Under the pieces are notes generated by a model that was not told where the DNA came from, did not search any database, and saw only the letters and a program-made list of their open reading frames with translations. A stretch of 64,000 nucleotides of DNA from Eledone cirrhosa. Taxonomy: Eukaryota. The DNA lies in the NCBI GenBank assembly GCA_964016885.1, contig OZ024740.1, positions 204,290,001 to 204,354,000 on the forward strand, in the 5' to 3' direction. The position numbers and the translations under genes were made by a program. Positions 562 to 63,711 of this stretch are shown here, one piece after another (positions within the stretch are counted from its first letter, which is position 1; each line of letters opens with the position of its first letter).

Positions 562-869
562 TTAAAGTATATATAGGCCTTGTGCCTATGTATACTTATT
601 AAATCATTATTAAAGTATATTTTGAAATACCTTGCAGCATGTTATATTTATACTTGTTTTAAGAAAAAAGCTAGTGTTCAGCAGTTAATATGCAGTGGGT
701 TGTCTTTTGCAGAGGGAAGAAAACATACGAAGAAATTTTCGTCCAACAACTTTTGTTGGTTTTCTTGAGGGGACGAGTGTCTCAGTCTTCGCACAGCGCT
801 GATTTCCATTCCAGCCGTACAGCACTCAGCATCAAACCTATCAAATGTATGCCGGACATCACCACGATC

Positions 870-3652: not shown

Positions 3653-3698
<46 letters not shown>
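3653..3698. repeat. (TAA)n microsatellite; left boundary of the retrotransposon stack and 3' tail of element A1
   Basis: About 15 perfect TAA units abutting the element 3' end. Confidence 0.95.
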
Positions 3699-3700
<2 letters not shown>

Positions 3701-3960
3701 TTTCTTTATTAACCACAAGGGTTTACATAAAGTAGACATTAAGGACAGTGCAGGACAATGCAGGACGGTACAAATGGGCATTTCTGCGTGTAAAAAAACA
3801 AAAACAGAGGATGTAACAAAAATAACAATGAAAATAACAATGAAAAATTCCCCAATAGGGGGGAGACTTCGGAGGGACATTTGTGGAGAAAGCCCAGTAA
3901 AAAGCCACAATGACCCTGACCACCAAGGCAAGTGCCCTCTCCCAGTTTTCCACCTTTAGT

Positions 3961-6900: not shown

Positions 6901-7004
6901 ACTACATCTATGTTTAGTGACCTGAGGTCGTTGAGCAGGTGACCCTGCTTCCATGACGACCCCAAGCCACGCGCATTTATGCTGCCTATTCTGAGTGAGT
7001 TCAT
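3961..7004 (-). pseudogene. Family A1 ORF2 (APE endonuclease + RT + CCHC), disrupted
   Basis: SINARGL, AISET, VYAP, YLDR, TDH, YWKLN, DQSKAFDRVDH, QGCPLS, AYADD, CPRC..ETVLHALVQC. Relative to A2: deletions near 4867 (~320 bp) and 5780 (~58 bp), and a TAG at 5467. Confidence 0.92.
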
Positions 7005-7039
7005 GTTTAAAATAGAGTGGAAAAGATGGGAAAGACCAC

Positions 7040-9152
7040 TTACCGTACTTTTCGTAGAGGAGGGATGGTTTTTACATCCCTTTTCACTTGATCGTCTGGT
7101 GAAGGGACTGTTGAATCGTCCCTTCGGCTGGTCATCGGCTCTTCTATGAGTATGTCCGAATATACTCTTCGGTTGATAGTTCCTCCTAGGTCTCTGAAAT
7201 CACCAACTGCGTTGGGGAATTTCGTTTTAATGTTTGTGTATTGTTTCTGTGCTATTTTTAGCAGTCTTATGTTAGTTGGCGTTTTGATTGGTGCTGGTAT
7301 TATGTAGTCGTGTTGTGAAATGTCTGTGTGTTCAATTATGTAAGTCATTAGTTTCTTGTTGTGTGTATTTATTGCCGTGCATTTGTTTTTCTGGGGGTGG
7401 GGTGTGGTTCTGCTATTTTCTTGTTTTTGCTGGGTGTGTGTGTTTTGTTGTTGTGTTTGCGATGTTGGTGCTTGTGGTGGTGGTGTTGAAGGTGTTGTTG
7501 TTGTTGGCGGTGGGGTTGTCGCCGGTGGTGATGGTGGTGCTAGTGTGGGTTGTGATGGTGTTGGTGGTGTTGCTGCTGTGAGTCTCTTTGCAATAGACTT
7601 TACCCTTTTTTCATTTCTTTCCTCCCTTTTCAAAGGCGACGATGCGCTGCTTCTGCGTTTGTGCCTTCTTACGACCTTTTGCCATTCCTCTCCCACCTCA
7701 CACTCCATGTCTGATTATGTGAGGTCGGGGAGGGGTACCAGCTCCACTCTTTCACTTGTTGTTGTTGGTGATGTTTGCACTGGAGTCTCTGTTTCAGCTG
7801 CATTTGGTATTGCTGTTGTTGTTAATACTTCCACTGCTGCTGCTGTTTTTGATTTCCGTGGCGTGGGTATGGGTGCCACGGACCTATCGTTCCTGGTTGC
7901 CGCTTGTCCTGTTGCTGGTAGCCGTGGAGCCGGTTTCGGGAGGAGGGGGGTTTCTCCTTTCTCAGGGTCTTCTCGTTGCAGAAGGCCCTGAGGTGAGTCT
8001 TCGATCCACAGCGAAAGCATTTCGGGCGTTTGCCCTCAACACTTATGGGCAGTTGAGTGCCGTTATCGAAGTCTATCACATCCGGGATAGCTTCGATGCA
8101 CTCCTGGTTGGTTTGGATTAACATCTCAATGGAGGTGCCGACCCAATCTTCTCTTACTTTTTTCTGTACTTGCAGTACAGTTGTTTTGTCCTCGATTCCG
8201 ACGAGGACAGATGCGGCCAGCCAAGAAGGGGCCATCCCGGGGGGGGGGCGTGGGTCAGTTTGACCCTCACAATTTTTTGCCCGCAGTAGGAGGGCACCAA
8301 CACCATTTCCTCGCTCCTTAGGGTCACTACGGATTGAACCTTTTCCTCCTGGGGTGTGGCAAAAAGTACGTCTACGGTGGCATATTTCTTGCCTCGGGTG
8401 ATGTGTGTTTTCCGCTGCCACACAGACCCCAAGGCTTTTTGTATTTGAGCCTCTGTGGCTCTTTCCACCCTACGGGATTTTGTACTTACTGTACGGTACG
8501 TGACCGTACAGTGCTGTTGGGTTTCGAAAAAATTTTCCGCTGCCTTGCAGATTGCTCGGTGTCCAGTCTTTGTCACCATCTTCTTCGCTTCCTCTAATTC
8601 CTCATTTGTTATGAGGATTGTTTCCAGGTTCTTCGCGATACCTGCAAACGAGATTGGTTTTTCTTTGCTGCTGTTGTTGTTGTTGTTGTTGTCGTCAGAG
8701 CTGCTGTTACTTTTGTTGTTGCTGCAGGTACTACGACTACTGCCGCCGCCGCTGTTGCTGTGGTTGTTGTTGTTGTTGTTGCTGCTGCTAATGCTGTTGT
8801 TGTTTATGCTGCTGCTGATGCTGTTGCGGCTGCTACTGTTGTTTTCATTGTCACTGTTGCTGTTGCTATTACGGCTGCTACTGCTATTATTCCTGACGTC
8901 AGACGAATGAAATGGGTTTTCGTATTTCCCGCACACCTGTTTCGTCGTCGTTGTCGTCGTCGTCGTGGAGAAATCTTGCACGCTTTGCACGAGACTTTTC
9001 TTTTCTGTCGTCGCTTGCGAAAGAGAAGGGAGGGAGAGAGACACATTTAAAGAAGGGAGGGAGAGAGACAATCTTCTCTCTGCTGTAGTGACGATTGAGG
9101 AAGAAGACGGAATGAGTGGGAGTGACCTATGAACATTCTTTTTCGTAGCCAT
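7040..9152 (-). pseudogene. Family A1 ORF1 (gag-like), frameshifted
   Basis: Split over ORFs 8154-9191, 7822-8421, 7715-8020 and 7040-7708; knuckle CFRCGSKTHLRAFC. Confidence 0.88.
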
Positions 9153-9371
9153 GTTGTTTTTTTTTTTGTTTAAAATAAATATTGGGCACAAAACCCCAAT
9201 AAGCAGTTATTTAACCCCGAAGGGCCAAATAACGGGCAGAAAGACCCCTCTCACGAGGAGGAGGGTGTTTTTGTCTACAAGTTGGTAAAAGTTTTAAACA
9301 ATTTACAATTGTTATAACGTTCAAAATTTACAATACCTTACAGAGCAGAGCCTCCGTCAACCATAGCATTC

Positions 9372-9428
<57 letters not shown>
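9372..9428. repeat. (AAT)n spacer between the A1 5' end and the SINE 3' end
   Basis: About 19 perfect AAT units. Confidence 0.95.
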
Positions 9429-9608
9429 TGTTTCTACTTTTGGCACAAGGCCAGCAATTATATCAGTGCATTACTGGTACTTTATTTTATCGACCCCGTA
9501 ATGATGAAAGGTAAAGTTAACCTCGGCGGGATTTGAACTCAGAATGGCAAGGGCCGTAACTCTATGCGCCAAAGCATGGCATCCGACACTCTACCGATAC
9601 TGCCAATT
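9429..9608 (-). mobile_element. SINE family 1 copy inside the stack
   Basis: Reverse complement of 378-553 with 2 substitutions by eye. Confidence 0.9.
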
Positions 9609-9889
9609 AATGATCTCATTTATTAACCACAAGGACCGACATGTAGGGGACAATACAAAGACAGGGACAGTGGGGTTTACAATAAGGTCGAGTAAAAGTG
9701 CACAATGGCAAGACTAATTTAACAATGAAAATATAAAAATATAAAATAAACTATGCATAAATATAACAAAATAAATTCCCCGATAGGGGGTGGACGACCC
9801 TGGGGTGATTCGGGTACCCCACCAATCCTGAACCACCCTGCGCTTCTAGGGCACCCAGGGAGGGCACCCCTCTCCTCAAGTTAGCCAGC

Positions 9890-12800
9890 CTATAGGCGCA
9901 TGGTCAGAGTAGGCCCATTCACACGAGCCATTCTCGCCACATTCACCCACCTTTTAGCAAATGTACTGGGGGACAGCACTTCTCTCTCCACCCTCACCCT
10001 CCTTTCCAGGTGAAACTTGAAGAAGTTGATGAGGGATTGGCCGAAAAGAAAAGTGTCTGTCTTTAGTCCTTTCAACCTGGTCCACCATATAATCTCTTTC
10101 GCAACTGCCACCAGACAGAGGAAAATGTCCTGCTCTTCCTGACCTAAGGAAGGTGGGGGCTCGATCTTCACTATGGACTCGGCCGATAGCCGGATTCGTT
10201 CCACACGCGACAGAAGCTGTTCGACATAACTCCACAAGTCAGTAATGCACGGACATTGGACAAGTGCGTGCAGAACGGTTTCGTCGTTCTGTGCGCATCT
10301 TGGGCAGGTCCGTCTGACAGCACTTCCGTGCCTGTAGAGTTTATCCCGAACCGGCAGTACCCCCCCCCCCCCGGTAGCACTGCCAAGCGAGGGATTTCTG
10401 GAAATTGTCCATCGTCCCCGGCTCAAAAGTCCTCCGGTACAGACTGGTCAGTTCGACTTCGTCGAGGCCCAAAGCTTCTCCGAGTGCGTCATCGCACTTG
10501 CCCACCACTAATCCTCTATAGAACTCGAGAGTGGAAGTTCAACTGATCGCATTGCCAGGTGCCAGTCACCCAGTCTCGGTCTCTTCTTGGCCCAGGACTG
10601 CAGCTCAGTCAAAGAAATGAGCTGCGGAAAGGCCCGTCTGATAAACGGCGACCACACCTGTTCACCATTGAGGCAGAATATCTGGAGATGTCGCAGCCTC
10701 AACGCATGTCTGCGCATCATTAGCCACGGCATGCCCAGCCCTCCGCGTAGAGGGTGCTGGCAGCAGATGGACCGCCTCACCAACGGAACTTGTCCCCTCC
10801 ACAAGAATTTGAAGAGGAGCCGTTCCAACTTGACGAGGCGCGGACGGTGGCAAGGCACGACGGTTAGGCGGTAGTATATGACGGACGCGATGTACGCATT
10901 CGCCACCTCCGCGCGACCTTTCAGTGATAGCTTCCTCCCAGCCCATTTTTTGGTGAGACTGGCTGCTCTGCTCGTTACCTCGTCCCAATTCTTTTCCACC
11001 TGGAGGTCTGGTCCGAACCAAACCCCGAGCAACTTTACCGGTCCGTCCGTCCAGCGCCCCACGACGCTGTTGGACGGCATGGGCTTGCCTCTCCAGGTTC
11101 CGAGCTGCAAGCCCACCGACTTTTCCGGGTTAAGTTTGGCTCCTGTCAACCTTTCATATTCCTTCAGTAAGGTGCCGACCACCTCGATTTCTGAGGTGTT
11201 CGACACCATCACGGTGATGTCGTCCGCATAAGCCGACACCGTCTTTCCACGTCCCGGTTCGAGCGGGATGCCCTGCAACAGCTCCAGCTTCCGCAGTAAA
11301 GGCTCGAGAGTCAATACGTACAGAAAGGAAGAGAGAGGGCACCCTTGACGGACCGATCGGGAGAGCCGAAATGGTTCCGAGAGGTGGTCATTAACCTTGA
11401 CCACCGAGCGTGTGCCGCTGTGCATTGCAACGATCCAGCTTCTAAAGACAGGGCCGAAGCCAGTCGCTTTGAGGACAAACTCCAGATACCGATGGTCGAC
11501 CCTATCGAATCCTTTCGATTGATCTAAATTGATCAGTGCCCCACCGAAGCCAGGTTTACACCCTACCCTCTCTATGATGTATCGCATGAGGTGGAGATTG
11601 TCGTGTATGGACCTGGCTGGGATTGCGCAAGTTTGCGCCTCCCCAACCAAATCCTCGACGACAAGCGCCAATCTCTTTGCTAACACCTTGGCCAAAATCT
11701 TAAACTCTGTGTTGAGCAGAGTTATGGGCCTGAAGTTGTATAATGTATCCCTCTTGTTCTCGTCTTTCCTTATCAGCGTCACCACTCCCCTGCTCACAGA
11801 ACTGGGAATACTCCCATTCTGCTGCCAGTTACAGTAGAGTGCTTCGAGGAGTTCGGAGAACAAGTCTGGCATATTTACGTAAAGCTCGTAGGGCAGGCCA
11901 TCCAAACCGGGTGACTTGCACCTCATGCAGCCGACAAGGGCGTCCTGAATTTCAGCTGAAGTAATCGGCCTTTCGCAGCGCTCAGCGTCGACCGTCAAGA
12001 TGCGCGACAAGCCGTCAAGGTAGGGACTGTAATCCGCTACTCTCTCTGACTCGCCACTCTCCCTGAACAACCGAGCAAAGTGCTGGCGAAAGGCCTCACA
12101 CATCCGCTTGGAATCGCTTATCTCGTGTCCGTCTCGGTCCGTCAAAGACCGAATTGTGGTTTTATTACCACGCTGCGCCTCTGCCACGCGGGCCCATCGA
12201 ACAGCTTTAGTTCCCTCGATTCTCAGCGCACGCGCCTTAGCTCTGACAATGCAACCTTCGTGTTTGGCGTTGAAGAAATGGTCTAATGCCATTCTCGCCG
12301 CTAGCACGTCAGTTGCGATGCCACTACAAATACCCTCGTCTAACTTATCTACCAGCTCCCCCTCCTTTCTATTTTTCTCTAACGCTAGTTCTTTGCTGAA
12401 CTCTATCGAAGTTACTCTAATCTCTCTTTTGAGAGCCCCCCACCATCTGTTGTTGATAATCCCCCCTGTCAACTTTTGCTTAACTAAATTGTTGACTCGG
12501 TCCCTGTAAGCCTTACGTGCCGGAAATGACATGTTCAGCTTCCAGTAACCCGGTCCTAACCTACGCGTTTTATTTAGGTCGACCGTACAGATCACAAATT
12601 TGTGATCTGAATAGGCGACCGTTTTAAAAAGTGGACAGCCCACACTATTTCTATCTATTTTCCTAATGAAGATCCTGTCTATATACGATCTAGATGACCC
12701 CATTCGGTTGGTCCATGTCCATACTGGCACATTGGGGAAATCTAGTCGATACCTGTCAGACAGTTGGAACTGGCTGAGTAGGTGCTTGAGGCTTTTGCAC

Positions 12801-13283
12801 CCCCCGCTCCTATCGGCTACTCCCACACAATCCCAGCGTGCGTCTATGATGCCATTCCAGTCCCCCGCTAACAGTAAAGGGCGAGACATACCCAGAAAGC
12901 TCTCCAGCCGCCTAAAGAAGTCAGGTCGTCCGGCCCCTGTAGGGGCATAGACGGCCACCAGTCTAAAGGCACCACCTTCGCTACTGCTCACATCCAAGAC
13001 CACCAACTTACCGTCCGGGTCCCGGAAGATCGACCTTACCTCGAGATTCCAGTCCTTTCCCAAACAGCACTGCCACCCCACCTCCCATTCCCGGCCTGCT
13101 AACAGATGCGAAGATCTGATAGTCGTCGAAAATGGGGGCTAGTGCGCGCGTGTCGGAAATTCTGGTCTCGCTTACGGCAATCACATCCATTTCCAGCGAC
13201 CGGAGGTCGTTGAGCAGGGGACCCTGCTTCCAGGGTGACCCCAGGCCGCGAACATTTAAACTTCCTACTCTTAATATGGCTAT
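9890..13283 (-). pseudogene. Family B ORF2 (APE-RT-CCHC), frameshifted
   Basis: ILRVGSLNVRGLG, IAVSET, YSDH, YWKLN, DQSKGFDRVDH, AYADD, GGLGMP; breaks near 13070, 10550 and 10370; start position reads ATA. Confidence 0.9.
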
Positions 13284-13292
13284 ATTGGTAAG

Positions 13293-15252
13293 CTAAGAGA
13301 GAGAGAGGGAAGGTTTACTTACCTCCCGGGTCTTGTGAAGGTCGGGTGGTTCGACCTCCATGGTTGGTGAGGTTTCTTTTGGGAACCCCTTTAAAAGTCT
13401 TGATGTAGGTTTCACATTCGGGGTTCCCACGTCTTGAGGAAAGCTCTCTCGAATTTCTTTGAAGGAATTGAATGACATTCGGACCAGAAGAAAATCTTCT
13501 GGCACGCAAAATGTGCTCATTTCAAAAATCTCCCCCTCTGTTTGAATGTCCTCGCTTCGCGCTAAGAGGGCCATCAGTTTATCGTTGGCCCTTCTGACAA
13601 GCACGAAGTTTTTAACATTTTGTTGGTGTGGTTTTATTTGTTTTCGTTTTGGTGAAGGTGGTGGCGATGGTTTTGGTGGTGTTGTTTCGGGTATGTCTAT
13701 GTTTGTTGTAGGTGTGGTGTCTGCAATTTCAGGTATTTGTGTGTTTATTTGTACTTGTGTTTGTTTAGGTTGTTTGCGTTTCGGGGATTGTGGAGGTGGT
13801 GTCGATGTTGCTGTTGGTGATGATGTTATTGGGGAAGTGTTTGCGTTAGTGGTGTCTGTAATTTTTGTTGTGTGTGTTTTTGTGTTTTGTTGGGGCTTTT
13901 TTTTTTGTGAGTTTTCTCTGTTTTTTTTGCACTTTTGGGTTTTCCTTCATCTTCGCTGCTGGAAGACAAAGGGTCTGTGTCTGTGAGTGTCTCTGTGTCT
14001 GTGTGTGCGTTTATTGTTTTGTCTATGTGTATAATTGGGGGGTAGGGGGAGTGGGAGAGCTTTCCTCGTTTTCTCCTTGGATTGGTTTTGGTGTTGGTGG
14101 TGATCCGGCTGCTTTTGATGTTGAGTCCGTGTTTCTGTTGATGTTGTTTTTGGTGGTGGTGGTGGTGCAGCTTTCCGTGCTGACACTAGCGTTGGCAACA
14201 AAGGAGGTTTGCGACCCCCTGCATTTTTGCGCTGAGGGCAGAAGGCTTGAAGATGCGTTGCTTCCCCGCAGACGAAGCAGCGTGGCCTTCTTCCGTCAAT
14301 CATTAGTTGGATTGTTGTCCCGTCTTGCAGGCGGGCAAAATCCGGGATGTTATTCATATCTTCCGGTTTCATTTGGAGAAGAATCTCCAAATCGATTCCG
14401 GACCAGTCCTCTCTCTCTGTCCTTTTGATGTCCAGGAGGGTAGTGTCTGTCCCCTCCTCGATTACGCATCCCAGCAGCCACCATATGTTCATTCCTGGTG
14501 GGATGCTGGGAATGCGTACCTTCACTGTCCTTTTACCCATATAGGAAGGATGCATGATAATGCGTTCGGTTCTGCAGGGTCACCGAGTGCTTAATAGCGA
14601 GGGCCTCGGTTTTGAACAGTACCGAGATGGTACCGAACTGTTTGCCTCTTGCTTTGTACTCTATGTTACTTCCGATGTACTCCAAAGCAGCCTTTACCTC
14701 TGCTTGGCTCGCAAGTTCCACTTTTCGTGTCTGCACCGAAATGCATCAAAAGTACACCGTACTCCTTTGCATGGCCGCTATTGCCTCGTCCGGGATGGTC
14801 AGGTTTTCCCAGGACTTCTCCCGTTTAATTAGCCTCCACGCTTTGGCCAACTGTTCGTCTTTATCGCTAATATCAATATCAATATTCAATAAGCGCTTTG
14901 TTTTTGCTGCTGCTGCAGCAAATGTGGTGTTTTTGATGCTCTTATTGTTGCTGTTGCCACCGCCATCCTTGTTTACATTGAAGCTGTCGGTGTTATTGTC
15001 GTTATTGCTCTGAGTTGTTGTTGTTGTGGTGGTGGTGGTGGTGGTGGTGGCGGTGGTGGTGATGTCGTTTTCAGATGATACTGCTGCTATGGCAGAAGGT
15101 TGTGATGGTAGCTTTTGAGTTTTGCCTTCACATTCAGTAGAGTGGATGACAGGCATGACTGTAGCCGTCGTAGTCGTGGTGAAATCTGCAGTGGCTGCCG
15201 TTAAACTTTTGACCTGAACGTTGTTTACCGTTTCAAGGTCGAAAATTTCCAT
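13293..15252 (-). pseudogene. Family B ORF1 (gag-like), frameshifted
   Basis: ORFs 14746-15252, 14533-14736, 13947-14555 and 13293-13604 match the family A ORF1 layout (low-complexity N-terminus, RRM-like core, CCHC knuckle, T/P-rich linker). Confidence 0.85.
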
Positions 15253-15478
15253 AATTTTCTTTTGGTGGGGAAGCGATTTTTTTCGAAGTTTTTTAAAATA
15301 AATCTGAATATTCGGGCTTAAAGCCCGAATATTGAGAGGTATCCCTCTCTTTAAATCAAGATGTGTACCTTAAGTTTCGTTAATGACAAGAAAATACAAG
15401 AAAAAGACATTTTAAAACAGCTTAAAGTTACGAACCTTTTCTCCCGCAGATTTGTACTGTCTTCACACATGTGCGGCC

Positions 15479-15540
<62 letters not shown>
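15479..15540. repeat. (AAT)n spacer between the B 5' end and the A2 3' end
   Basis: About 20 perfect AAT units. Confidence 0.95.
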
Positions 15541-15542
<2 letters not shown>

Positions 15543-15790
15543 TTTCTTTATTAACCACAAGGGTTTACATAAAGTAGACATTAAGGACAGTGCAGGACAA
15601 TGCAGGACGGTACAAGTGGGCATTTCTGCGTGTAAAAAACAAAAACAGAGGATGCAACAAAAAATAACAATGAAAAATTCCCCAATAGGGGGGAGACTTC
15701 GGAGGGACATTTGTGGAGAAAGCCCAGTAAAAAGCCACAATGACCCTGACCACCAAGGCAAGTGCCCTCTCCCAGTTTTCCACCTTTAAT

Positions 15791-18700
15791 TTACAGATAT
15801 ATGCTCAGAGTAGGCCCATTCACTCGGGCCATTCTTGCTTCTCTCACCCATCTTTCAACAAAATGCTGGGAAGAGAGCACTTCCCTCTCTACTCTGATTT
15901 TCCTTTTCAAATGAAATTTGAAAAAGTCAATCAGAGCATCACCGAAGAGGTAAGTGCTCGTCTTCAGCCCTTTCAAACGTGTCCACCATACTATCTCTTT
16001 CACCATGGCCACCAGGCAGATAAAAACTGCCTGCCCTTCCCGGCTAAAGGAGGAGGGCGGGGCAATCCTCACGATGGACTCAGATGATAGCCGGATCCGT
16101 CCTAAACGCGACAGCAGGTGTTCGACATAAACCCACAAGTCAGCAATTTTCGGACACTGGACGAGTGCGTGCAGGACGGTTTCGTCGCCCTGCGCGCATC
16201 TCGGACATGCCCGGCTGACGGCACCTCCATGCCTGTAGAGTTTATCCCGAACTGGCAAGGCTCCTCGGTAGCACTGCCAGGCCAGAGATTTCTGGAAGTT
16301 GTCCATAGGCCCTGGCCCGAAAGTTCTTCCGAAGAGATTGGCTAGTTGATTTTCGTCGACGCCTAGAGTTTCCCCAAGTACGTCATCGCTCTTCCCCTCC
16401 ACTAATCCTCTATAGAACGCCGAGGTGGAGTTTCCACCGATCACATTGCCCGATTGGTCGAGGGCTGTGAGCGCCTGAAGACATTCCAGTCTCCAGGCGC
16501 TCCCTCTCGGTCTTCGCTTGACCCAGGACTGCAGCTCCGTCAAGGAAACGAGCTGGGGAAACACGCGCCTAGCAAACGGCGACCACACCTGATCACCGTC
16601 GAGGAAGAGGTGGAGATGTCGTAGCCTGAGCGCGTGCCTGCGCATCATCAGCCACGGCATGCCCAGCCCTCCACGTAGCGGGTGTTGACAACAGATGGAC
16701 CGCCTGACCATCGGAGCGCGTCCCTTCCACAAAAAGCGAAAGAGCAAACGCTCCAGCGCAGTCAGGCGAGGCTTAGGACAAGGTACGACGGTCAGACGGT
16801 AGCAGATGACGGACGCGATGTACGCGTTAGCCACCTCCGCTCGACCTTTCAGGGATAGCTTCCTCTCCGCCCATTTCTGGGTGAGAGAAGCCATCCTGCT
16901 CGTCACCTCGTCCCAGTTTTTGTCCGTCTGGAGGTCCGGACCGAACCAGACCCCTAGCAATTTAACCGGTCCGTCCGTCCAGCGTCCGACGACGCTGTTG
17001 GACGGCATGGACCTGCCTCTCCAGGTGCCGAGCTGCAGGCCCACTGACTTTTTCTGGTTGATCATTGCTCCTGTCACCGCTTCGTATTCTCTTAGTGTAG
17101 TGCCGATCGCCTCGATGTGTTTGGCGCTCGACACCACTACGGTGACATCGTCCGCATATGCTGACACTGATCTTCCGCATCCTAGTTCGCGCGGGACTCC
17201 CCTCAACGTCTCCAGTTTGTGCAGTAATGGCTCGAGAGTCAATACGTACAAGAGGGACGAGAGGGGACATCCTTGGCGGACCGAGCGCATGATGTTGAAC
17301 GGTTCCGACAGGTGACCGTTCACTCTCACCACAGAGCAGATGTCGCTGTGCATGGCAGCGATCCAGCCTCTGAAGACGGGCCCAAAGCCAGCCGCCCTCA
17401 GGACTGCCGCTAGGTAACGATGGTCGACCCTATCGAAAGCTTTCGACTGATCTAAATTGATCAAGGACCCACCCGTGCCAGGTTCCCTAGCTACCCTCTC
17501 TACGATGTATCGCATGAGATGGAGGTTGTCGTGGATGGATCTGTCGGGAATGGCGCATGTCTGCGCCTCTCCCACCAGACCACCAACGACAAGCGCCAAC
17601 CTCTTTGCTAGCACCTTGGCCAAAATCTTAAACTCTGTGTTTAGCAGAGTTATGGGCCGGAAATTGTCTATGTTATCCCCCTTGTTCGGATCCTTTCTCA
17701 GCAGTGCCACCGCTCCTCGGCTCACAGAACTGGGAATTCTCCCGTTCTGTTGCCAGTTGCAGTAGACGTCCGCCAAGAGGCCTCCGAACAAGTCTGGCAT
17801 CTGTACGTAAAGTTCATAGGGCAGACCATCCAAACCAGGCGATTTACCCCTTGTGCAGCCAGTCATTGCCTCCCTTACTTCAGCGGCTGTTATCGGCTTT
17901 TCGCAACACTTCGCCTCAGTGGCCGAGAGCCGCGGCAGTCCGTCGAGGTAGACACTAAAGTCCATCCCTCTACCCGGCCCCCCGCTGCCCCCGAACAGCT
18001 GAGCGAAGTGTCGCTGAAAAGCTTCACACATTTGCCCGGGATCGAGTAGCATGCGCCCGTCGTGGTCCACCAAAGACCGGATCGTGGCTTTGTTGCCACG
18101 ACGCGCCTCCGCCACTCGGGCCCATTGAACGGCTTTCGTCCCCTCGTGTCTGAGAGCACGCACCCTAGCTCTGACAACGCAGCCTTCGTGCTTTGCATTG
18201 AAGAATTGGTCAAGGGCCAATTTCGCCGCAAGCACGTCGGTCGTAATGCCTTTGCTAAGCGCCTCGTCTAATTTTTTAACTAGTTCTCCCTCTGCTCTAT
18301 TTTTCTCTATTGCTAAAGCCTTACTAAACCCTAATCGATTCTATTCTAATCGCTCTTTTCAGAGCAAACCACCACTTGTTGTTGACGATGGCCCCCGTCA
18401 ACGCCCGCTTAACTAGTTCGCTAATCCGGTCTCTGTAGGCCTTGCGCGCTGGTAAGGACGCGTTTAGCTTCCAGTAGCCGGGTCCTCGTCTATGAAGCCT
18501 ATCTAAGTCAAGCACACAGGTCACGAATTTGTGGTCCGTGTAGCTGACTATCTTGAATTGTGGACAGCCTATGCTAGACCTATCTATTTCCCTACAAAAT
18601 ACTCTATCTAGATATGATCTGGATGACCCTACGCTATTTGTCCAAGTCCACATTGGCACATTCGGGAAATCCAATCGGTACCTGTCAGACAGTTCAAAAC

Positions 18701-19211
18701 GCCTGAGCAGGTTGGTGAGGCTCTTGCACCCTCCACCCCTATCCGCTAATCCCACACAGTCCCAGCGTGCATCTAAGATCCCGTTCCAGTCGCCCACTAA
18801 CACTAAAGAGCGGGACGTTCCAAGAAAGGTCTCCAGACGCCGGAAGAAATCAGGCCGCCCTGCTCCTGTCGGGGCATAGACGGCCACTAGCCTGAAAGCT
18901 TGCCCGTCTCCGCTGGTCACGTCCAGCACCACCAGCTTGCCCTCTGGGTCCAGGAAGATGGCCCGTATGGCGAGATCCAAACCTCTCCGAAAAAGCACAG
19001 CAACTCCTCCACCCGATCCAGGACGGCTGGGAGATGCGTACACATCGTAGCCGCCGAAGATCGGTGCGAAGGCCCGTGCTTCGGAGATTCTGGTCTCGCT
19101 GATGGCCACTACATCTATGTTTAGTGACCTGAGGTCGTTGAGCAGGTGACCCTGCTTCCATGACGACCCCAAGCCACGCGCATTTATGCTGCCTATTCTG
19201 AGTGAGGTCAT
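15791..19211 (-). pseudogene. Family A2 ORF2 (APE-RT-CCHC) with one frameshift
   Basis: ORFs 18324-19211 and 15791-18235 join if one C is removed at ~18330 (aaaccctaa versus aaacctaa in A1); catalytic motifs GDWN, YLDR, TDH and YADD are present. Confidence 0.9.
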
Positions 19212-19246
19212 GCTTAAAATAGAGTGGAAAAGATGGGAAAGACCAC

Positions 19247-21328
19247 TTACCGTACTTTTCGTAGAGGAGGGATGGTTTTTACATCCCTTTTCACTTGATC
19301 GTCTGGTGAAGGGACCGTTGAATCGTCCCTTCGGCTGGTCGTCGGCTCTTCTAAGAGAATGTCTGAGTATACTCTTCGATTGATGGTTCCTCCTAGGTCC
19401 CTGAAATCACCAACTGCGTTGGGGAATTTCGTTTTAATGTTTGTGTATTGTTTCTGTGCTATTTTTAGCAGTCTTATGTTAGTTGGCGTTTTGATTGGTG
19501 CTGGTATTATGTAGTCCTGTTGTGAAATGTCTGTGTGTTCAATTATGTAAGTCATTAGTTTCTTGTTGTGTGTATTTATTGCCGTGCATTTGTTTTTCTG
19601 GGGGTGGGGTGTGGTTCTACTATTTTCTTGTCGTTGTTGCTGGGTGTGTGTGTTTTGTTGTTGTGTTTGCGATGTTGGTGCTTGTGGTGGTGGTGTTAAA
19701 GGTGTTGTTGGCGGTGGTGATGGTGGTGCTAGTGTGGGTGGTGATGGTGTTGGTGTTGTTGCTGCTGTGGGTCTCTTTGCAGTAGACTTTACCCTTTTCT
19801 CATTTCTTTCCTCCCTTTTCAAAGGCGACGATGCGCTGCTTCTGCGTTTGTGCCTTCTTACGACCTTTTGCCATCCCTCTCCCACCTCACACTCCATGTC
19901 TGATTCTGTGAGGTCGGGGAGGGGTACCAGCTCCACTCTTTCACTTGTTGTTGGTGATGTTTGCACTGGAGTCTCTGTTGCAGCTGCATTTGGTATTGCT
20001 GTTGTTGTTGTTGTTAATATTTCCACTGCTGCTGCTGTTTTTGATTTCCGTGGAGTGGGTATGGGTGCCACGGACCTATCGTTCCTGGTTGCCGCTTGTC
20101 CTGTTGCTGGTAGCCGTGGAGCCGGTTTCGGAAGGAGGGGGGTTTTCTCCTTTCTCAGGGTCTTCTCGTTGCAGAAGGCCCTGAGGTGAGTCTTCGATCC
20201 ACAGCGAAAGCATTTCGGGCGTTTGCCCTCAACACTTATGGGCAGTTGTGTTCCGTTATCGAAGTCTATCACATCCGGGATAGCTTCGATGCACTCCTGG
20301 TTGGTTTGGATTAGCATCTCAATGGAGGAGCCGACCCAATCTTCTCTTACTTTTTTCTGTACTTGCAGTACAGTTGTTTTGTCCTCGATTCCGACGAGGA
20401 CAGACGCGGCCAGCCAAGAAGGGGTCATTCCGGGGGGGACGTGGGTTAGTTTGACCCTCACAATTTTTTGCCCACAGTAGGAGGGCACCAACACCATTTC
20501 CTCGCTCCTTAGGGTCACTACTGATTGGGCCTTTGCCTCCTGGGGTGTGGCAAAAAGTACGTCTACGGTGGCATATTTTTTCCCTCGGGTGATGTGCGTT
20601 TTCCGCTGCCACACAGACCCCAAGGCTTTTTGTATTTGGGCCTCTGTGGCTCTTTCCACCCTACGGGATTTTGTACTTACTGTACGGTACGTGACCGTAC
20701 AGTGCTCTTGGGTTTCGAAAAATTTTTCCGCTGCCTTGCAGATTGCTCGGTGTCCGTTCTTTGTAACCATCTTCTTCGCTTCCTCTAATTCCTCATTTGT
20801 TATGAGGATTGTTTCCAAGTTTTTCGCAATACCTGCAAATGAGATTGGTTTTTCTCTGCTGTTGTTGTTGTCGTCAGAGCTGCTGGTACTTTTGTTGTTG
20901 CTGCAGGTACTACGACTACTGCCTCCGCCGCTGTTGCTGTGGTTGTTGTTGGTGTTGCTGCTGCTAATGCTGTTGTTGTTTATGCTGCTGGTGATGCTGT
21001 TGCGGCTGCTACTGTTGTTTTCATTGTCACTGTTGCTGTTGTTATTACGGCTGCTACTGCTATTATTCCTGACGTCAGACGAATGAACTGGGTTTTCGTA
21101 TTTCCCGCACACCTGTTTCGTCGCTGTCGTCGTCGTCGTGGAGAAACTTTGCACGCTTTGCACGAGACTTTTCTTTTCTTTCGTCACTTGCGAAAGAGAA
21201 GGGAGGGAGAGAGACACATTTAAAGAAGGGAGGGAGAGAGACAATCTTCTCTCTGCTGTAGTGATGATTGAGGAAGAAGAAGACGGAATGAGTGGGAGTG
21301 ACGTATGAAATTTCTTTTTCGTAGCCAT
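19247..21328 (-). CDS. Family A2 ORF1, 693 aa gag-like RNA-binding protein
   Basis: Uninterrupted ORF; single CX2CX4HX4C knuckle; N/S-rich and T/P/Q-rich low-complexity tracts. Confidence 0.9.
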   Translation of the reverse strand: MATKKKFHTSLPLIPSSSSSIITTAERRLSLSLPSLNVSLSLPSLSQVTKEKKSLVQSVQSFSTTTTTATKQVCGKYENPVHSSDVRNNSSSSRNNNSNSDNENNSSSRNSITSSINNNSISSSNTNNNHSNSGGGSSRSTCSNNKSTSSSDDNNNSREKPISFAGIAKNLETILITNEELEEAKKMVTKNGHRAICKAAEKFFETQEHCTVTYRTVSTKSRRVERATEAQIQKALGSVWQRKTHITRGKKYATVDVLFATPQEAKAQSVVTLRSEEMVLVPSYCGQKIVRVKLTHVPPGMTPSWLAASVLVGIEDKTTVLQVQKKVREDWVGSSIEMLIQTNQECIEAIPDVIDFDNGTQLPISVEGKRPKCFRCGSKTHLRAFCNEKTLRKEKTPLLPKPAPRLPATGQAATRNDRSVAPIPTPRKSKTAAAVEILTTTTTAIPNAAATETPVQTSPTTSERVELVPLPDLTESDMECEVGEGWQKVVRRHKRRSSASSPLKREERNEKRVKSTAKRPTAATTPTPSPPTLAPPSPPPTTPLTPPPQAPTSQTQQQNTHTQQQRQENSRTTPHPQKNKCTAINTHNKKLMTYIIEHTDISQQDYIIPAPIKTPTNIRLLKIAQKQYTNIKTKFPNAVGDFRDLGGTINRRVYSDILLEEPTTSRRDDSTVPSPDDQVKRDVKTIPPLRKVR

Positions 21329-21533
21329 GTTGTTTTTTGTTTAAAATGAATATTGGGTACAAAACCCCAATAACTGGTCATTTAGCCCCGAAGGGCCAAA
21401 TAACGGACAGAAAGATCCCTCTCACGAGGAGGAGGGTGTCTTTATCAACAATTTGGTTCAAGTTTTAAACAATTTACAATTGTTTTAACGGTTAAAAATT
21501 ACTATACCTTACAGAGCCGAGCCTCCGTCAACC

Positions 21534-24500
21534 ATGGCATTCAATAATAATAATAATAATGAGAATGAACTTGCCAACTTGAAGGATGAAATTATGATCG
21601 AATGGATGAAAATGAAAGAATCTGACATGGGGCAACGAGACACCCTCCCTAAGATCCAGAACTCCAAACAGAACCAAAAGATAATACACAAGACTAACAT
21701 AATTCTCAAAAACATTATCATCACAAACAAACTAAACATTACTGATTTAAATCATCTCTATTATGCATCGGCTAAAGTCACCACTCACTTATGTGGAGTG
21801 AAGATGAAAAAACAAAGGAATTCCCACAAGAAATCTACTTGGCAAGAGAACATCAATCGCCAAATAAACCTTCTCCGATCTGACATAGACATTTTAACAA
21901 ACTATAAAGTAGGTGAACATGTTAAACAAACTAAACTTAGAAAATTGAAAAAAAAGTACAGTATAAAATCAACATGTGACATAGACATGCTGATAGAAAT
22001 AATCAAGCAAAAAGTGTCGGCCAAAGCTGCTCGTATAAGGCGCTTTGAAAAACGATCTAGATTCTATAAGGACAATAATATGTTCAAAAACAACCAAAGA
22101 AACTTCTACAGAAAAATTGGTAAGTCAACAATAACTGTTAAATCAATACCACCCAAGGAGGAAGTGCAAGAATTCTGGGAAAAGATCTGGGCCGAAGAAA
22201 AAGTTCATAACATACATGCCCCATGGATAGACAGACAAATGAAAGATACAGCTCACCTTGAGGAACAAACATGGGAAAATATAACAGTTGAACAGTTGCG
22301 CTTGGCTCTAAGAAAAACCAGCAAATGGAAATCCCCAGGAAAAGACAAAATACAAAACTTTTGGATAAATGCCTTCACAGAGTCTCATGAGCTGTTAGCC
22401 CAACTTTACAATGAAATAGTTAAGGAGCCAGAAAAGATACCATCATGGCTAGTTAACGGCATTACATTCCTGCTTCCGAAGAATGATGAGACAAACAATC
22501 CCCAAAATTACAGACCGATAACTTGCTTGACCACAATGTATAAAATTTTAACATCAGTCCTAACTGAATACACATATGACCACCTGATAACAAATGACCT
22601 ATTTCCCATTGAGCAGAAAGGGTGTAAACGAGGCTCATATGGCTGTAAGGATCAGCTTCTGGTTAACAAAATGATACTGGAAGATTGTCATAATAGACAC
22701 AAAAATCTATCGATTGCTTGGATAGATTATAAAAAAGCATTCGATAGTTTGCCACACAGTTGGATTGAAAAATGTTTAGAGATTTTCAAAATATCCCCCG
22801 TTGTCAGGAGGTTTTTGTCATTCAGTATGAAGACATGGAAAACGACACTCCTTTTGAATAGTGAAACAAAATCACTGGAAGCTGGAGAAGTTAATATTAA
22901 TTGTGGAATTTTTCAGGGTGACTCTTTATCACCGCTTTTATTCTGCATTGCACTTATACCATTAAGTAAAATGCTCAATGAAACAAAACATGGATATAAA
23001 GTCTATGACAAAACCATTAATCACCTGTTCTACTTGGATGACCTGAAACTATTTGCAAAAAATTATGAACAATTGCAAGGGCTATTATCCACTGTGAAGC
23101 AGTTCAGTGATGACATTAAAATGGAGTTTGGACTAGATAAATGCGCCAAAGCAACGTTCACCAGAGGAAAGCTGCTGAAGAGTTCAGACATTAATCTTGA
23201 TCGGGGGAACGTGATAAGAGAAGTTGATCAAGAAAAAACTTACAAATATCTAGGTGTTTGTGAAGGAGACGGAATGAAGCACTCGACAATGAGGGAAAGG
23301 ATAAGGAAGGAATGTTACCGCAGAGTAAGAGCAATCTTAAGAACGGAATTGAATGCAAGGAATAGGATCGATGCCATAAACATGCTTGCCATACCAGTAG
23401 TAACCTACAGTTACAATGTCATCAACTGGTCAAGCACAGAGATCCGTAGGCTCGATACAAAAATTCGAAAATTCTTAACCATGCACAGAATGCATCACCC
23501 TAAGGCAGATATAGATAGAATATATCTCCCTAGGAAAGAAGGAGGACGTGTGTTAATCCAGTTAGACATTGCGTTGAAAACTGCAACAATTGGATTATCT
23601 ACATATCTAAGGGAATCACATGATTGGATGATCAAACTCGTTTTGAAACACGAAAGCATCAAAAGATCATATTCCATTACAAAAGATGCACAAAGATACA
23701 GTAATGGACTACAAATTTCAGAAGTCCCATTTACTGCTGAAATGGAAAACACAAAAAAAGCAAAGCAGGTAAAAGTAACTGCAAAGAAAGAACTGCTACA
23801 GAAACTGGCTAAGAAATGGCAAGAAAAGCCTCTGTATGGAAAATACCCAGAGCGAGCTAACAATCCTGATGTTGACAAAACTTTAACCCATCAGTGGTTG
23901 GCATCCTCTGGACTGAAATCGGAGACTGAAGGACTGATTATATCGGCACAAGATCAGTGTCTGCCAACAAAAAATTACCAAGCCAACATAAAAAAAAATG
24001 GGTGCAGCCCATTATGCCGTGTATGCAAAAAACAACCAGAGACCATTGACCATATAATTTCAATGTGCAGTCCTATAGCTCCAACCGAATACCTAAACAG
24101 GCATGACAGAGCTGCACAATACATACATTGGATAATGTGTAAGCATTTTGACCTGCCCCATCAAAAGAATTGGTGGGAGCATCAACCACCTCCCATACTT
24201 GAAAAAGATCACATCTCAATCTTGTGGAACTTTAGCATCCAAACAGACCGAAAAATAGATGCAAATAGACCTGATATAATACTGAAGGGCTTTAAAAAGA
24301 GGGTATGCCTGCTAATTGATATGTCCGTTCCAATAGACAAAAATGTATCTATAAAAACATTTGAAAAATTGAGCAAGTGTAAGGACCTGGAGATAGAAAT
24401 TGGAAAAATATGGAAATTGAGAACTAAAACAATACCAGTGGTTGTAGGCGCTCTAGGAATGATACCTAAGGGGTCTAATGATTACTTATCGCAAATCCCA

Positions 24501-24581
24501 GGAAACCCGTATATAGGAGAAATACAAAAGATAGTACTAATGGGAACTGCCCATATACTAAGGAAGATTCTGTCAATATAA
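21534..24581 (+). CDS. RT + CCHC + restriction-like endonuclease ORF (1015 aa; first 9 codons come from the A2 end and the microsatellite)
   Basis: YRPITCL, WIDYKKAFDSLPH, GIFQGDSLSPLLF, HLFYLDDLKLF, CRVC..ETIDHIISMC, RHD, NRPDII..LIDMSVP, EKLSKC (canonical KY appears mutated). Confidence 0.85.
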   Translation: MAFNNNNNNENELANLKDEIMIEWMKMKESDMGQRDTLPKIQNSKQNQKIIHKTNIILKNIIITNKLNITDLNHLYYASAKVTTHLCGVKMKKQRNSHKKSTWQENINRQINLLRSDIDILTNYKVGEHVKQTKLRKLKKKYSIKSTCDIDMLIEIIKQKVSAKAARIRRFEKRSRFYKDNNMFKNNQRNFYRKIGKSTITVKSIPPKEEVQEFWEKIWAEEKVHNIHAPWIDRQMKDTAHLEEQTWENITVEQLRLALRKTSKWKSPGKDKIQNFWINAFTESHELLAQLYNEIVKEPEKIPSWLVNGITFLLPKNDETNNPQNYRPITCLTTMYKILTSVLTEYTYDHLITNDLFPIEQKGCKRGSYGCKDQLLVNKMILEDCHNRHKNLSIAWIDYKKAFDSLPHSWIEKCLEIFKISPVVRRFLSFSMKTWKTTLLLNSETKSLEAGEVNINCGIFQGDSLSPLLFCIALIPLSKMLNETKHGYKVYDKTINHLFYLDDLKLFAKNYEQLQGLLSTVKQFSDDIKMEFGLDKCAKATFTRGKLLKSSDINLDRGNVIREVDQEKTYKYLGVCEGDGMKHSTMRERIRKECYRRVRAILRTELNARNRIDAINMLAIPVVTYSYNVINWSSTEIRRLDTKIRKFLTMHRMHHPKADIDRIYLPRKEGGRVLIQLDIALKTATIGLSTYLRESHDWMIKLVLKHESIKRSYSITKDAQRYSNGLQISEVPFTAEMENTKKAKQVKVTAKKELLQKLAKKWQEKPLYGKYPERANNPDVDKTLTHQWLASSGLKSETEGLIISAQDQCLPTKNYQANIKKNGCSPLCRVCKKQPETIDHIISMCSPIAPTEYLNRHDRAAQYIHWIMCKHFDLPHQKNWWEHQPPPILEKDHISILWNFSIQTDRKIDANRPDIILKGFKKRVCLLIDMSVPIDKNVSIKTFEKLSKCKDLEIEIGKIWKLRTKTIPVVVGALGMIPKGSNDYLSQIPGNPYIGEIQKIVLMGTAHILRKILSI

Positions 24582-24726
24582 GTACATCACAAGTCTAAAC
24601 GCCTAAAGATGTATGTGTGAGTATGTATGTTCTTTCTTGAACATGGCGGACCTTGTTGTCTCTTGAGGTCACTGGTTGTTACTTGGTGATAACTCGTACG
24701 AACATAAAGCAAGATAGATGCAGCTG
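21561..24726 (+). mobile_element. R4/Dong-clade RLE non-LTR retrotransposon, 5'-truncated, with (TAA)n tail
   Basis: (AAT)6 at 21543-21560 and (TAA)n at 24727-24746 flank it; Dong-type elements are known to target TAA repeats. Confidence 0.9.
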
Positions 24727-25078
24727 TAATAATAATAATAATAATATTATTTATAGTTATGTATACACTATATCATACACCTACGGTAGTAGGTGTATAA
24801 TATTCTTAAGGTCCCATTTCGGTCACTCGCGACACCTTCAAACTTTGTCACTAATTCAATTTTTGATAGAATTGGATGCGGTTTTTTGCACTTTATAGGA
24901 CCACAGATAAGCTACTTTTTTACATAAAAATATTTAAATTTGGTTCAGTAGAAAAAAAGTTACATAAAAATAAGTGAGGACCAAAAGAGTGTAAGGAACT
25001 ACATACATAAGTAACGCTTAGTTTGTTTCTAATTTCCAATACATTAAAATAGTGATAGATTGTACAATAGCGAATTGT

Positions 25079-28398: not shown

Positions 28399-28984
28399 TA
28401 AAACAATGAAATAAAAATTCAAGTCATTAGAAATATACTTCACTGCTTTACGATCGTTTCTAGATTATGATAATACATCGTAACCATACTTCGTTATCGA
28501 TCTATGAAGGGTTAGTTACAAAATATCAGATAAGGAAAATATTTACTTACATGCATATCACTTGTCAAAAGCAATGAGAATTTTATTCAAAATAAGTAGT
28601 AAATTAGTATTAAATTGAGTTCTATTGTCTTATTTGGGGGTAGCTGAAGAACAAACCAATCAGATTGTTTTTTTCCCATATGATGTTAAGATGAAAAATA
28701 ATTCACTTTAGTTGAGGTCATGACCCTTTGAAAGGAATGGTTGATTGGTGTTAACAATAGAATTGCTATAAAGAATCTATTAGGAAAAAGAGGATTGTCA
28801 TATTGATAGTTGAATATATATATGGTATAGTGAAGTTTAAAAGGAATGTAAAAATTAAATGTTGAGTTCTGTTGTATGGAGTTTTTAGGTGAATATATAT
28901 TGAGGTCATGATCAGGAAAGATAGTATATTAAAAGATGAAAATTATAAGATAATGAAATATAGTAATACAATAATATAATATAA

Positions 28985-29170
28985 TTGTTTCTACTTTAGG
29001 CACAAGGCCAGCAATTACTCAGTACATTACTGGTACTTTATTTTATCGACCCCGAAAGGATGAAAGGCAAAGTTAACCTCGGCGGGATTTGAACTCAGAT
29101 CGTAAAGGGACGTAACTATGCTGGAAAGCATGTCCGACCCTCTGCCGATACTGCCAATTCACCGCCCTAA
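28985..29170 (-). mobile_element. SINE family 1, full length
   Basis: Reverse strand gggcggtgaattggcagtatcgg ... gagttcaaatcccgcc ... ggccttgtgcctaaagtagaaac. Confidence 0.88.
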
Positions 29171-29829
29171 TATAATATAATGTAACACAATATAGTACGG
29201 TGTGGTACATTGTACTTAGTATAATACAGCGTATGATACGCCTTAAAATACTTTCAAGTATGTTTATGTATAAATAATCAAACTCAGATAAATACATGTT
29301 GACATATAGTCAAAACGCACAAATTTCATAGATCACAAAGTGCATATACCCACATTATAGATAGAGGTTTAGGTATATTGATACTCAACTAAAAACATAC
29401 ATACGCATAAATAGATGTAAACATATACATACATCTACATATGTGCACACAATCATATACATATATATTCATATATATATATATATACATATACACACCC
29501 ATACACATATATATATATGTATGTACACACACATACATGTACACACACACATAAACACTCATACACATATACACGCATATACATATATACACACACACAC
29601 ATACACATATATATATATTCACATATCATACATACATACATAGATACATATTTACTCATGCAATTACGGGTGGTTGTGTACCTTGTTGCCCTTAGTCATT
29701 AACGCATAAATCTAAGGAAGCTAAACAATTAAAAGGCAAGAAATAAGCATGAATGCGTATAATTAGGGGCAAGGGATACTAACAAATGTTACGCCATATA
29801 GAATTATAGTGAGTTGCTATTTAGAATAT

Positions 29830-51609: not shown

Positions 51610-51614
51610 GTAAG

Positions 51615-63410: not shown

Positions 63411-63491
63411 GTGAGTAGAGAAAACTGTTGATATTTTGTTGAAGCTAAAGTCACTACTGTCTCAAATACGCAAATATTATTTCTCACCGCT

Positions 63492-63686: not shown

Positions 63687-63711
63687 TCTCATCAGATGGA
63701 ACACGTAATAG

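Follow-up and report, generated by a model that had tools for sequence, protein, structure and literature searches.

Sharing of one target by two elements is known for several repeated sequences. In U2 snRNA genes, Keno (Tx1, APE) and Utopia (RLE) are described as having reached one target in parallel, at a common site with an identical 3' flank (PMC4640811). On the (TTAGG)n repeat of a single genome, TRAS1 and SART1 insert in opposite directions; both are telomeric APE elements of the R1 clade, and their opposite polarity is, by the account given there, decided by the EN (PMC7265360). Togen (RLE) in (TG)n and Mino (APE) in (AC)n occupy one microsatellite written as its opposite strands, with the strands taken as named, in hosts that are not the same. 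Bao and Jurka reportedly presented (ATT)n-specific Tx1 families as well, in a preprint from about 2015.

Simple repeats are also the described targets of the L1-group APE elements Kibi, in (TC)n, Koshi, in (TTC)n, and crocodilian Tx1, in (TTCC)n/(TTTC)n (PMC4494074). Dong, a member of the R4 clade described from Bombyx, Anopheles, Biomphalaria and Darwinula, is a single-ORF element (RT-CCHC-RLE) found in (TAA)n (PMC3812793, PMC7998251, PMC13282606), with hosts given as insects, molluscs and cnidarians (PMC7998251). One source places Dong among the APE elements (PMC3812793), another assigns it an RLE and argues that R4/Dong site choice resides not in the RLE but in an N-terminal Myb-like domain (PMC7998251). 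In Octopus vulgaris, Dong-R4 is reported as active, with 1129 recent insertions beside 421 of L1-Tx1 (PMC13282606).

Here we analysed a window of 64,000 nt from Eledone cirrhosa (GCA_964016885.1, contig OZ024740.1, 204,290,001-204,354,000, forward strand), in which positions 3654-24746 constitute a single (AAT)n microsatellite interrupted by three Tx1-like APE elements, a SINE and a Dong/R4 RLE element. The Tx1-like copies (A1, A2 and B) and the SINE lie on the minus strand, and Dong/R4 on the plus strand:

3654..3698, plus strand: (AAT)15, 3' flank of Tx1-A1 and left end of the split microsatellite
3699..9371, minus strand: full-length, dead copy Tx1-A1 with deletions of 58 and 318 nt and with GHWN in place of the APE motif GDWN
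9372..9428, plus strand: (AAT)19 linking the A1 5' end with the SINE 3' end
9429..9608, minus strand: SINE with some 8-12 nt missing from its 5' start, from a dispersed family with 13 blast matches in the window
9609..9611, plus strand: one AAT unit, at the junction of the SINE 5' end with the B 3' end
9612..15478, minus strand: Tx1-B, full length, frameshifted
15481..15540, plus strand: (AAT)20 linking the B 5' end with the A2 3' end
15541..21542, minus strand: Tx1-A2, full length
18477..19211, minus strand: A2 APE domain (PF03372, E 1e-14), catalytic motifs present, best solved relative L1 ORF2p
19250..21328, minus strand: A2 ORF1, within a 697-codon frame (19247-21340), with a CCHC knuckle (C-x2-C-x4-H-x4-C) read in translation
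21543..21560, plus strand: (AAT)6 flanked by two 5' ends, those of A2 and the 5'-truncated Dong
21561..24726, plus strand: Dong/R4-like element with RT, CCHC and RPD..D..K RLE, more than 200 codons gone at the 5' end
24727..24746, plus strand: (TAA)6 at the 3' end of Dong, right end of the split microsatellite

Read on the sense strand, A1 ends in (ATT)15, A2 in (ATT)20, the SINE in (ATT)19 and Dong in (TAA)6. The earlier note, made from the sequence alone, had all three Tx1 copies ending in (ATT)n; this holds for A1 and A2, whereas B ends in ATC-ATT, a single ATT unit, and has (ATT)20 on its 5' side. The note was right about the (TAA)n end of Dong and about the enzyme types, with an APE in A1, A2 and B alike and RLE motifs in Dong. 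The head-to-head arrangement that it saw is a 5'-to-5' one across (AAT)6, but the Dong "head" is a truncation point, as alignments of the Dong ORF begin at residue 205-252 in 10 of 10 full-length relatives tested. Lying between two 5' ends, this (AAT)6 includes no 3' tail and must be target-derived. At least six repeat units are present at five of the six Tx1 junctions, in four distinct runs, one of them common to B and A2; the B-SINE junction, with its single AAT unit, may result from a template switch or a small deletion. Outside the cluster, AAT-class runs of at least four units account for just 42 of 42,801 bases, so the location of the cluster in an AAT repeat is above chance. All three Tx1 copies are oriented alike and opposite to Dong, which by itself is weak evidence, the coin-flip chance being 1 in 8 for three Tx1 copies and one Dong at one locus. 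The overlap of the element ends with the repeat keeps the nick positions from being assigned to a phase of it.

The A2 ORF1 matched no family in a Pfam search. The A2 ORF2, broken by one frameshift near 18340, consists of an N-terminal APE (PF03372), an RT (PF00078) and a C-terminal zinc motif (PF13966), and a profile search places it nearer to L1 (ORF2p, E 1e-116) than to RLE elements (R2, E 3e-37). Two ORFs, a CCHC motif in ORF1 and the APE-RT-zinc order in ORF2 are the traits of the Tx1 clade (L1 group), to which these copies probably belong. Families A and B, an Argonauta protein and one other protein form their own clade (support 100) in a quick tree built without named Tx1 references and without Kibi or Koshi sequences. 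Like Kibi, Koshi and crocodilian Tx1, they are L1-group APE elements inserted into simple repeats, and they differ from these in the (ATT)n target and in having a clade of their own. No further A or B copies were found elsewhere in the window.

The Dong copy encodes, in a single ORF, an RT, a CCHC motif and an RPD..D..K restriction-like endonuclease, in agreement with PMC7998251 and not with PMC3812793; the conserved KxxKY reads KxxKC here. Among 120 Dong relatives, these motifs were counted in 116 (CCHC), 117 (RPD-type) and 113 (KxxKY). The APE domain is absent from the truncated copy and from five of five full-length relatives scanned. With (AAT)6 before it and (TAA)6 after it, the copy has the site as well as the predicted architecture of the Dong/R4 clade, whereas it lacks the N-terminal 200 or more residues, the part reported to contain the Myb-like domain (PMC7998251). 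Pfam named no Myb in five full-length relatives, and in the published analysis detection of this domain needed HHpred (PMC7998251). Database matches to the Dong RT included no named Dong references.

The SINE had been counted as a further instance of (ATT)n polarity. The copy in the cluster does end in (ATT)19, but its dispersed family occupies both strands (five plus and three minus among eight intact 3' ends) and a long (ATT)n end is found in only one of these eight; ATTAT stands at an identical offset in all of them. An abutting target duplication is kept by three of nine SINE-group insertions (11, 13 and 15 bp), all outside the cluster and on both strands, and is absent from the other six:

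558..620, plus strand: 33-bp insertion (573-605) ending AAATC and carrying the SINE's GGCCTTGTGCC motif, 15-bp duplication starting ATTATT
28973..29181, minus strand: full-length SINE, 13-bp target duplication starting ATTAT
63476..63691, plus strand: full-length SINE, 11-bp target duplication starting ATTATT

All three duplications begin exactly at ATTAT, overlapping the ATTAT with which the element itself ends, and no bases are added. In a background control, which itself includes SINE copies, 1 of 224 ATTAT sites had an 11-nt match 150-200 nt upstream.

A scan of a genome collection yielded 46 loci, 42 of them on contigs CAXXMW01, which are labelled bacterial and look like animal DNA, and four more distant. 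No family A or B member and no Dong was found among these loci. The nearest relatives with DNA context share 41% amino acid identity; their copies are arrayed on one strand, at sites that are unrelated and contain no microsatellite. Neither (AAT)4 nor (ATT)4 occurs in 444,821 nt of DNA of the closest relatives, hence the AAT preference is not lineage-wide. Tx1-related protein matches that were scanned showed no homopolymer run crossing a junction, and a search for orientation among database proteins whose reading frame continues into the repeat (ending in poly-N, poly-I, poly-L or poly-Y) gave nothing usable. An Rfam scan found a single tRNA in the window and none in eight related loci.

The presence of the repeat on the 5' sides of elements, together with dispersed duplications starting at ATTAT, supports the repeat being target DNA. 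Given this, TPRT geometry makes it highly probable that the first-strand nicks of Tx1 and Dong fall on opposite strands. The earlier claim that the APE and the RLE nick opposite strands thus stands for the priming strands, as read from element anatomy, but not for convergent nuclease specificity, as RNA pairing or the Myb-like domain could also explain the pattern and the array-forming relatives with 41% identity are not tied to a microsatellite. We moderately favour a joint account in which, on one microsatellite, the Tx1 machinery uses the (AAT)n strand for nicking and priming and Dong takes the (TTA)n strand for its priming. The strand complementary to the sense strand of each element would be cut first, as TPRT implies. 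The working target of Tx1-A/B may be a short sense motif, ATTAT or ATTATT, of about two units, with the APE likely nicking at or near a T/A step of the AAT strand. The Tx1-A/B RNA, probably devoid of poly(A) and ending in AUC-AUU a few bases past AAUAAA, likely pairs with the nicked target, and strand choice could come from this pairing of the AUU-ended RNA with nicked DNA. A long (ATT)n would present a dense array of ATTAT-type sites; since each insertion duplicates some target sites, later copies would pile up in one direction. Dong would select (TAA)n independently, through what published work argues is an N-terminal Myb-like domain. Target sharing would then reflect, as seems somewhat the better reading, convergence of two elements on a safe target, not demonstrably of two nuclease domains.

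An explanation by chance or artefact, with A1 and A2 derived from one insertion that was duplicated in DNA or mis-assembled, would leave two events and make orientation a coin toss. While the two copies are 97.5% identical and share both end positions, their non-CpG differences are enriched for synonymous changes (38/86 vs. 28% expected, P 0.0009), with pN/pS of 0.28 in the RT and 0.34 in ORF1; in the EN part it is 0.66 and selection is not significant (P 0.34). No ORF2 lesion is common to the two copies, and identity is just 91% in the first 300 alignment columns. The synonymous enrichment points to different working sources of A1 and A2 and speaks against one DNA-level duplication, making this explanation extremely improbable. 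Family B shares 67-68% DNA identity with A (71-72% amino acid identity in the APE), and the substitution counts support A1, A2 and B as putatively three separate insertions, with B a separate family. Local pile-up seems to us quite unlikely as well; here a Tx1 lineage would tend to re-insert next to an earlier copy or a SINE tail, the ATT runs would have grown from tails, Dong would have arrived separately and the opposite polarity would be accidental. Pile-up does fit the head-to-tail arrays of the relatives, where 143 of 143 tblastn segments on 17 contig segments are co-oriented, the ATT end that the SINE itself brings in all eight intact copies and the described commonness of tandem TE dimers (PMC5932611). 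However, each relative's array is mostly of one subfamily, whereas the block in the window combines two A sources and family B; moreover, a tail does not account for the (AAT)6 flanked by two 5' ends, and away from any array the dispersed duplications have the same sense-strand ATTAT.

A more serious, though still doubtful, competitor leaves polarity entirely to the RNA: APE nicking of AT-rich DNA would be loose and could fall on either strand, and extension would be confined to nicks with a 3' end that pairs with the AUU-ended RNA, leaving neither a sequence-specific APE nor nuclease convergence. The overlap of all three dispersed duplications with the element's own ATTAT end agrees with this, as do relatives with 90-100% identical APEs, which show eight unrelated junction types, without poly(A), among the 12 copies compared, and the RNA-target annealing proposed for SART1 and R1Bm (PMC7265360). 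On the other hand, the Tx1L EN is described as sequence-specific in vitro (PMC1950540), SART1 and TRAS1 have been retargeted by EN swaps (PMC7265360), and linkers of the relatives each resemble the target duplication of their own locus, e.g., on contig 16, where an 18-bp sequence occurs in three nearly identical copies around an array of two elements; such single-locus duplications also fit repeated insertion or unequal exchange. A bolder variant, which we regard as unlikely, is a self-guided Tx1 lineage whose RNA lacks poly(A) and picks both site and strand through its last few bases past AAUAAA, allowing retargeting without APE change. The octopod A/B clade would thereby be locked on ATT and mobilise the abundant ATT-tailed SINE, and an RNA-steered APE and a protein-steered RLE would share one microsatellite strand by strand.

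Whatever steers the nicks, the Tx1/Dong sharing of the AAT repeat is a real and ordinary new example of target sharing known for other repeats. As with Keno and Utopia, APE and RLE elements reached one target in parallel, here on opposite strands of a microsatellite instead of at a common site. The locus resembles TRAS1 and SART1 in having one genome, one repeat and opposite directions, and differs from them in enzyme type, clade and telomeric location; unlike Togen and Mino, its two elements share a host. In evolutionary terms, this is one more case beside Keno/Utopia and TRAS/SART, and it overturns nothing. If the polarity is true genome-wide, an octopus-like genome would hold two abundant, recently active families on one three-base target, nearly the simplest substrate on which the contributions of nuclease read-out and RNA-primer pairing to TPRT could be told apart, and the polarity would hint at which LINE partners the ATT-tailed SINE.

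A partnership of the SINE with Tx1 through a shared 3' end is weakly suggested by one more feature:

~15565..15577, minus strand: predicted 4-bp stem with a CUUGU loop, directly before AATAAA-GAAATC at the A2 3' end

Motifs resembling this stem-loop in B, the SINE and relatives are suggestive. Across 3' ends, a four-pair stem chosen by eye has 53 of 56 cells paired and three pairs changed on both sides; it folds in A2 and a relative and not in B or the SINE. A covariance model made with 3' ends taken from relatives gave 29 matches in the window at E <=10, none significant and headed by a C-rich chance match (E 0.028); the list includes all eight SINE ends and excludes the A and B ends. An RTE at 34.1-37.6 kb is an unlikely partner, as it ends in (GAT)n. 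Among the four more distant loci of the genome-collection scan, two have a 5S rRNA gene downstream, an arrangement that presumably recalls Mutsu.

Once the inserted elements are taken out, the 21-kb nest at 3654–24746 reduces to a single (AAT)n run. Its parts follow each other on the plus strand in this order:

(AAT)15
3699–9371, minus strand, Tx1-like element A1
(AAT)19
9429–9608, minus strand, SINE
one AAT
9612–15478, minus strand, Tx1-like element B
(AAT)20
15541–21542, minus strand, Tx1-like element A2
(AAT)6
21561–24726, plus strand, Dong-like element
(TAA)6

In A1, A2, and B, an APE domain (PF03372) lies N-terminal to the RT, and the best solved relative of A2 is L1 ORF2p. The plus-strand ORF contains an RT, a CCHC motif, and an RPD..D..K nuclease, its best solved relatives being R2 proteins. 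Named matches for the nest elements come from Octopus sinensis and Argonauta hians, making an octopod host probable; A2 and B also group with the Argonauta protein and one unnamed protein in a clade supported at 100 in a quick 37-row tree. The labels “Tx1” and “Dong” are putative, being based on domain order and target, with a tree that holds no named references.

The locus is real and tidy, and the observation of the earlier note is partly confirmed. The claimed (ATT)n sense-strand ends were found for A1, A2, and the SINE, with 15–20 units, whereas B ends in ATC and one ATT; Dong does end in (TAA)n, with six units. A2 and Dong, the right half of the nest, are indeed oriented 5'-to-5', but they are not head-to-head in the strict sense, as the Dong 5' end is a truncation: 10 of 10 full-length relatives align only from residue 205–252 onward. 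The (AAT)6 between the A2 5' end and the broken Dong 5' end is flanked by two 5' ends and hence cannot be a 3' tail.

An ATG antisense to the A2 5' UTR, in the context ACCATGG, is in frame with the truncated Dong ORF (21534–24581, plus strand; 1015 codons, without the N-terminal domain), the frame reading through (AAT)6 as six Asn. A1 has ATA at this spot, so the fusion is probably due to chance. A tRNA-Ala(GGC)-like gene (25079–25151, plus strand, 62 bits) lies 330 nt to the right of the nest and is followed by an inverted-repeat pair (25270–25445/26315–26495).

A1 and A2 are 97.5% identical, with lesions private to each. Synonymous differences are favored in the RT (pN/pS 0.28) and ORF1 (0.34), while the EN value of 0.66 is not significant. 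After removal of CpG sites and weighting of transitions, synonymous changes account for 38 of 86 differences versus 28% expected (P 0.0009), and hence the two copies most likely stem from different working elements. B is 67–68% identical to the A copies. Thus, A1, A2, and B are probably three insertions from three sources in one shared direction. Taken by itself, the orientation is weak evidence, since three copies would all oppose Dong by chance in one case of eight. The placement in such a repeat is far from chance: beyond the nest, AAT-class runs of at least four units occupy 42 of 42,801 bases.

The SINE group provides evidence from outside the nest on whether the repeat is target or tail, and on polarity. 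Eight of its copies retain the 3' end intact; they are found on both strands, and all have ATTAT at an identical offset. An unbiased direct-repeat search covered these copies and a 33-bp fragment (10 rows, as two 5' boundaries were tried for one copy). Abutting duplications were found in three of the nine insertions, each beginning exactly at ATTAT:

63476/63681, 11-bp duplication
29169/28973, minus strand, 13-bp duplication
558/606, 15-bp duplication at the 33-bp fragment

The search yielded no duplication at five insertions and, at one more, nothing but a 7-bp repeat at a distance of 23 nt; among background ATTAT sites, 1 of 224 has such a match. Hence, the SINE-group mobilizer inserts just before a sense-strand ATTAT, which is the polarity of A and B, at non-microsatellite sites. 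The 33-bp fragment, having the AAATC end followed by ATTATT as in A and the GGCCTTGTGCC motif as in the SINE, loosely connects the two groups. At 37986–38005, (AAT)5-TGTTT, the reverse complement of the SINE's final bases and tail, borders a truncated plus-strand SINE on the latter's 5' side; it would be either a very small insertion on the opposite strand or the product of an inversion.

Tx1 as the SINE partner is a lead rather than a result. A 4-bp stem capped by a CUUGU loop, selected by eye, can be drawn near the 3' ends of A, B, the SINE, and the relatives described below. In this hand-picked stem, 53 of 56 cells are paired and three pairs are altered on both sides; folding predictions recover it in just two of the four groups. 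A model built from the relatives' 3' ends alone gave no significant match and missed A and B. At the B–SINE junction, the ATC and one ATT of B are followed by the SINE without approximately 8–12 nt of its start. Ordinary-duplication insertion, whether of the SINE or of B, does not produce this arrangement; it would result if the template had switched from SINE RNA to the end of B RNA, or if a small deletion had followed later. The junction at 9600–9620 may thus be a template-switch chimera displaying the true end of B RNA. The nest SINE shares 98.9% identity with the copy at 378–554, whose 5' end is also joined to another element, in that case a SINE. An RTE-like LINE at 34100–37600 (minus strand) carries (GAT)n at its 3' end, and its RT core is followed by a PHD-like cysteine cluster.

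TPRT begins with a nick in the strand complementary to the sense strand of the element, and the nicked strand then primes cDNA. By this geometry, cDNA synthesis very probably starts on the (AAT)n strand for Tx1-A and Tx1-B and on the (TTA)n strand for Dong. The exact nicked bonds cannot be phased, as the element ends overlap the repeat; T/A steps are present in both of its strands. The earlier interpretation, that an APE and an RLE nick opposite strands of one microsatellite by convergent target specificity, is partly supported: opposite priming strands are very probable, but even if that polarity holds, reading of the repeat by the RLE is not the expected mechanism, since Dong recognition has been argued to reside in an N-terminal Myb-like domain (PMC7998251). 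The N-terminal region is missing from the window copy. The L1 nicking rule is 5'-TTTT/AA (PMC1950540) and would favor Dong's polarity, so A and B depart from it.

The best model, which we consider reasonably probable, is that the APE of A and B would have a short-motif preference and the AUU-ended element RNA would pair at the site, the microsatellite serving as a dense, self-renewing array of such sites. The main rival, rather unlikely in our judgment, places strand choice wholly in the RNA. A bolder alternative, in which the RNA end guides targeting throughout this lineage of Tx1, seems improbable. Both remaining explanations are weaker than the RNA-only rival. Local pile-up is quite improbable, and duplication or chance is very hard to credit.

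A genome scan yielded 46 loci, 42 of them (L001–L040, L044, L046) on CAXXMW01 contigs, with ORF2 approximately 41% identical to A2; the record is labeled as an Arenicella MAG, and these bacterially labeled contigs are evidently animal DNA. Mostly intact Tx1-like elements form tandem arrays there, with up to seven ends per segment and a linker of 12–20 nt particular to each array. The arrays are head-to-tail (143/143 matches co-oriented in 17 segments), hence same-direction clustering is possible without a microsatellite-reading nuclease. Unlike these arrays, the nest contains a mixture of families, a point in favor of true targeting. The relatives' elements terminate at AATAAA with no poly(A), and (AAT)4/(ATT)4 is absent from 444,821 nt of their DNA; thus, the preference for ATT does not go back to the ancestor of the wider lineage. 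These data bear on the relatives, not on A and B themselves. Twelve copies with APEs 90–100% identical show eight unrelated junction types, and a two-element array on contig 16 contains an 18-bp linker in three near-identical copies, the pattern that target duplication would give.

Tx1 targets reportedly include (ATT)n, according to a preprint by Bao and Jurka. Every ingredient of the locus has a precedent, and the combination is a new instance; in the literature searched, outside most subscription journals and Repbase, no description of a cephalopod (AAT)n shared by Tx1 and Dong was found. Precedents include Dong on TAA, treated along with Kibi, Koshi, Mino, and Waldo (PMC3812793), the parallel arrival of Keno and Utopia at one U2 site and Togen on (TG)n (PMC4640811), and TRAS and SART, which take opposite directions on TTAGG (PMC7265360). 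Further papers were also compared (PMC8967140, PMC3747384, PMC5786205, PMC4494074, PMC13282606, PMC5932611).

Several minor observations concern other sequences and other parts of the window. A predicted Octopus sinensis “tectonic-3-like” protein (P0003), whose N-terminal piece is 64% identical to the A2 APE, is probably a gene model that absorbed a Tx1 fragment. On two contigs labeled as bacterial MAGs, 5S rRNA genes lie downstream of distant Tx1-like ORFs (L041, 2726–2844; L042, 4422–4534), reminiscent of the 5S-specific family Mutsu. In the window, a frame at 51312–52040 (plus strand) with a partial SRCR domain (PF00530, E 3e-9) is probably a host exon, and a self-complementary stretch of approximately 600 bp at 62181–62785, its arms 86% identical, is MITE- or foldback-like.
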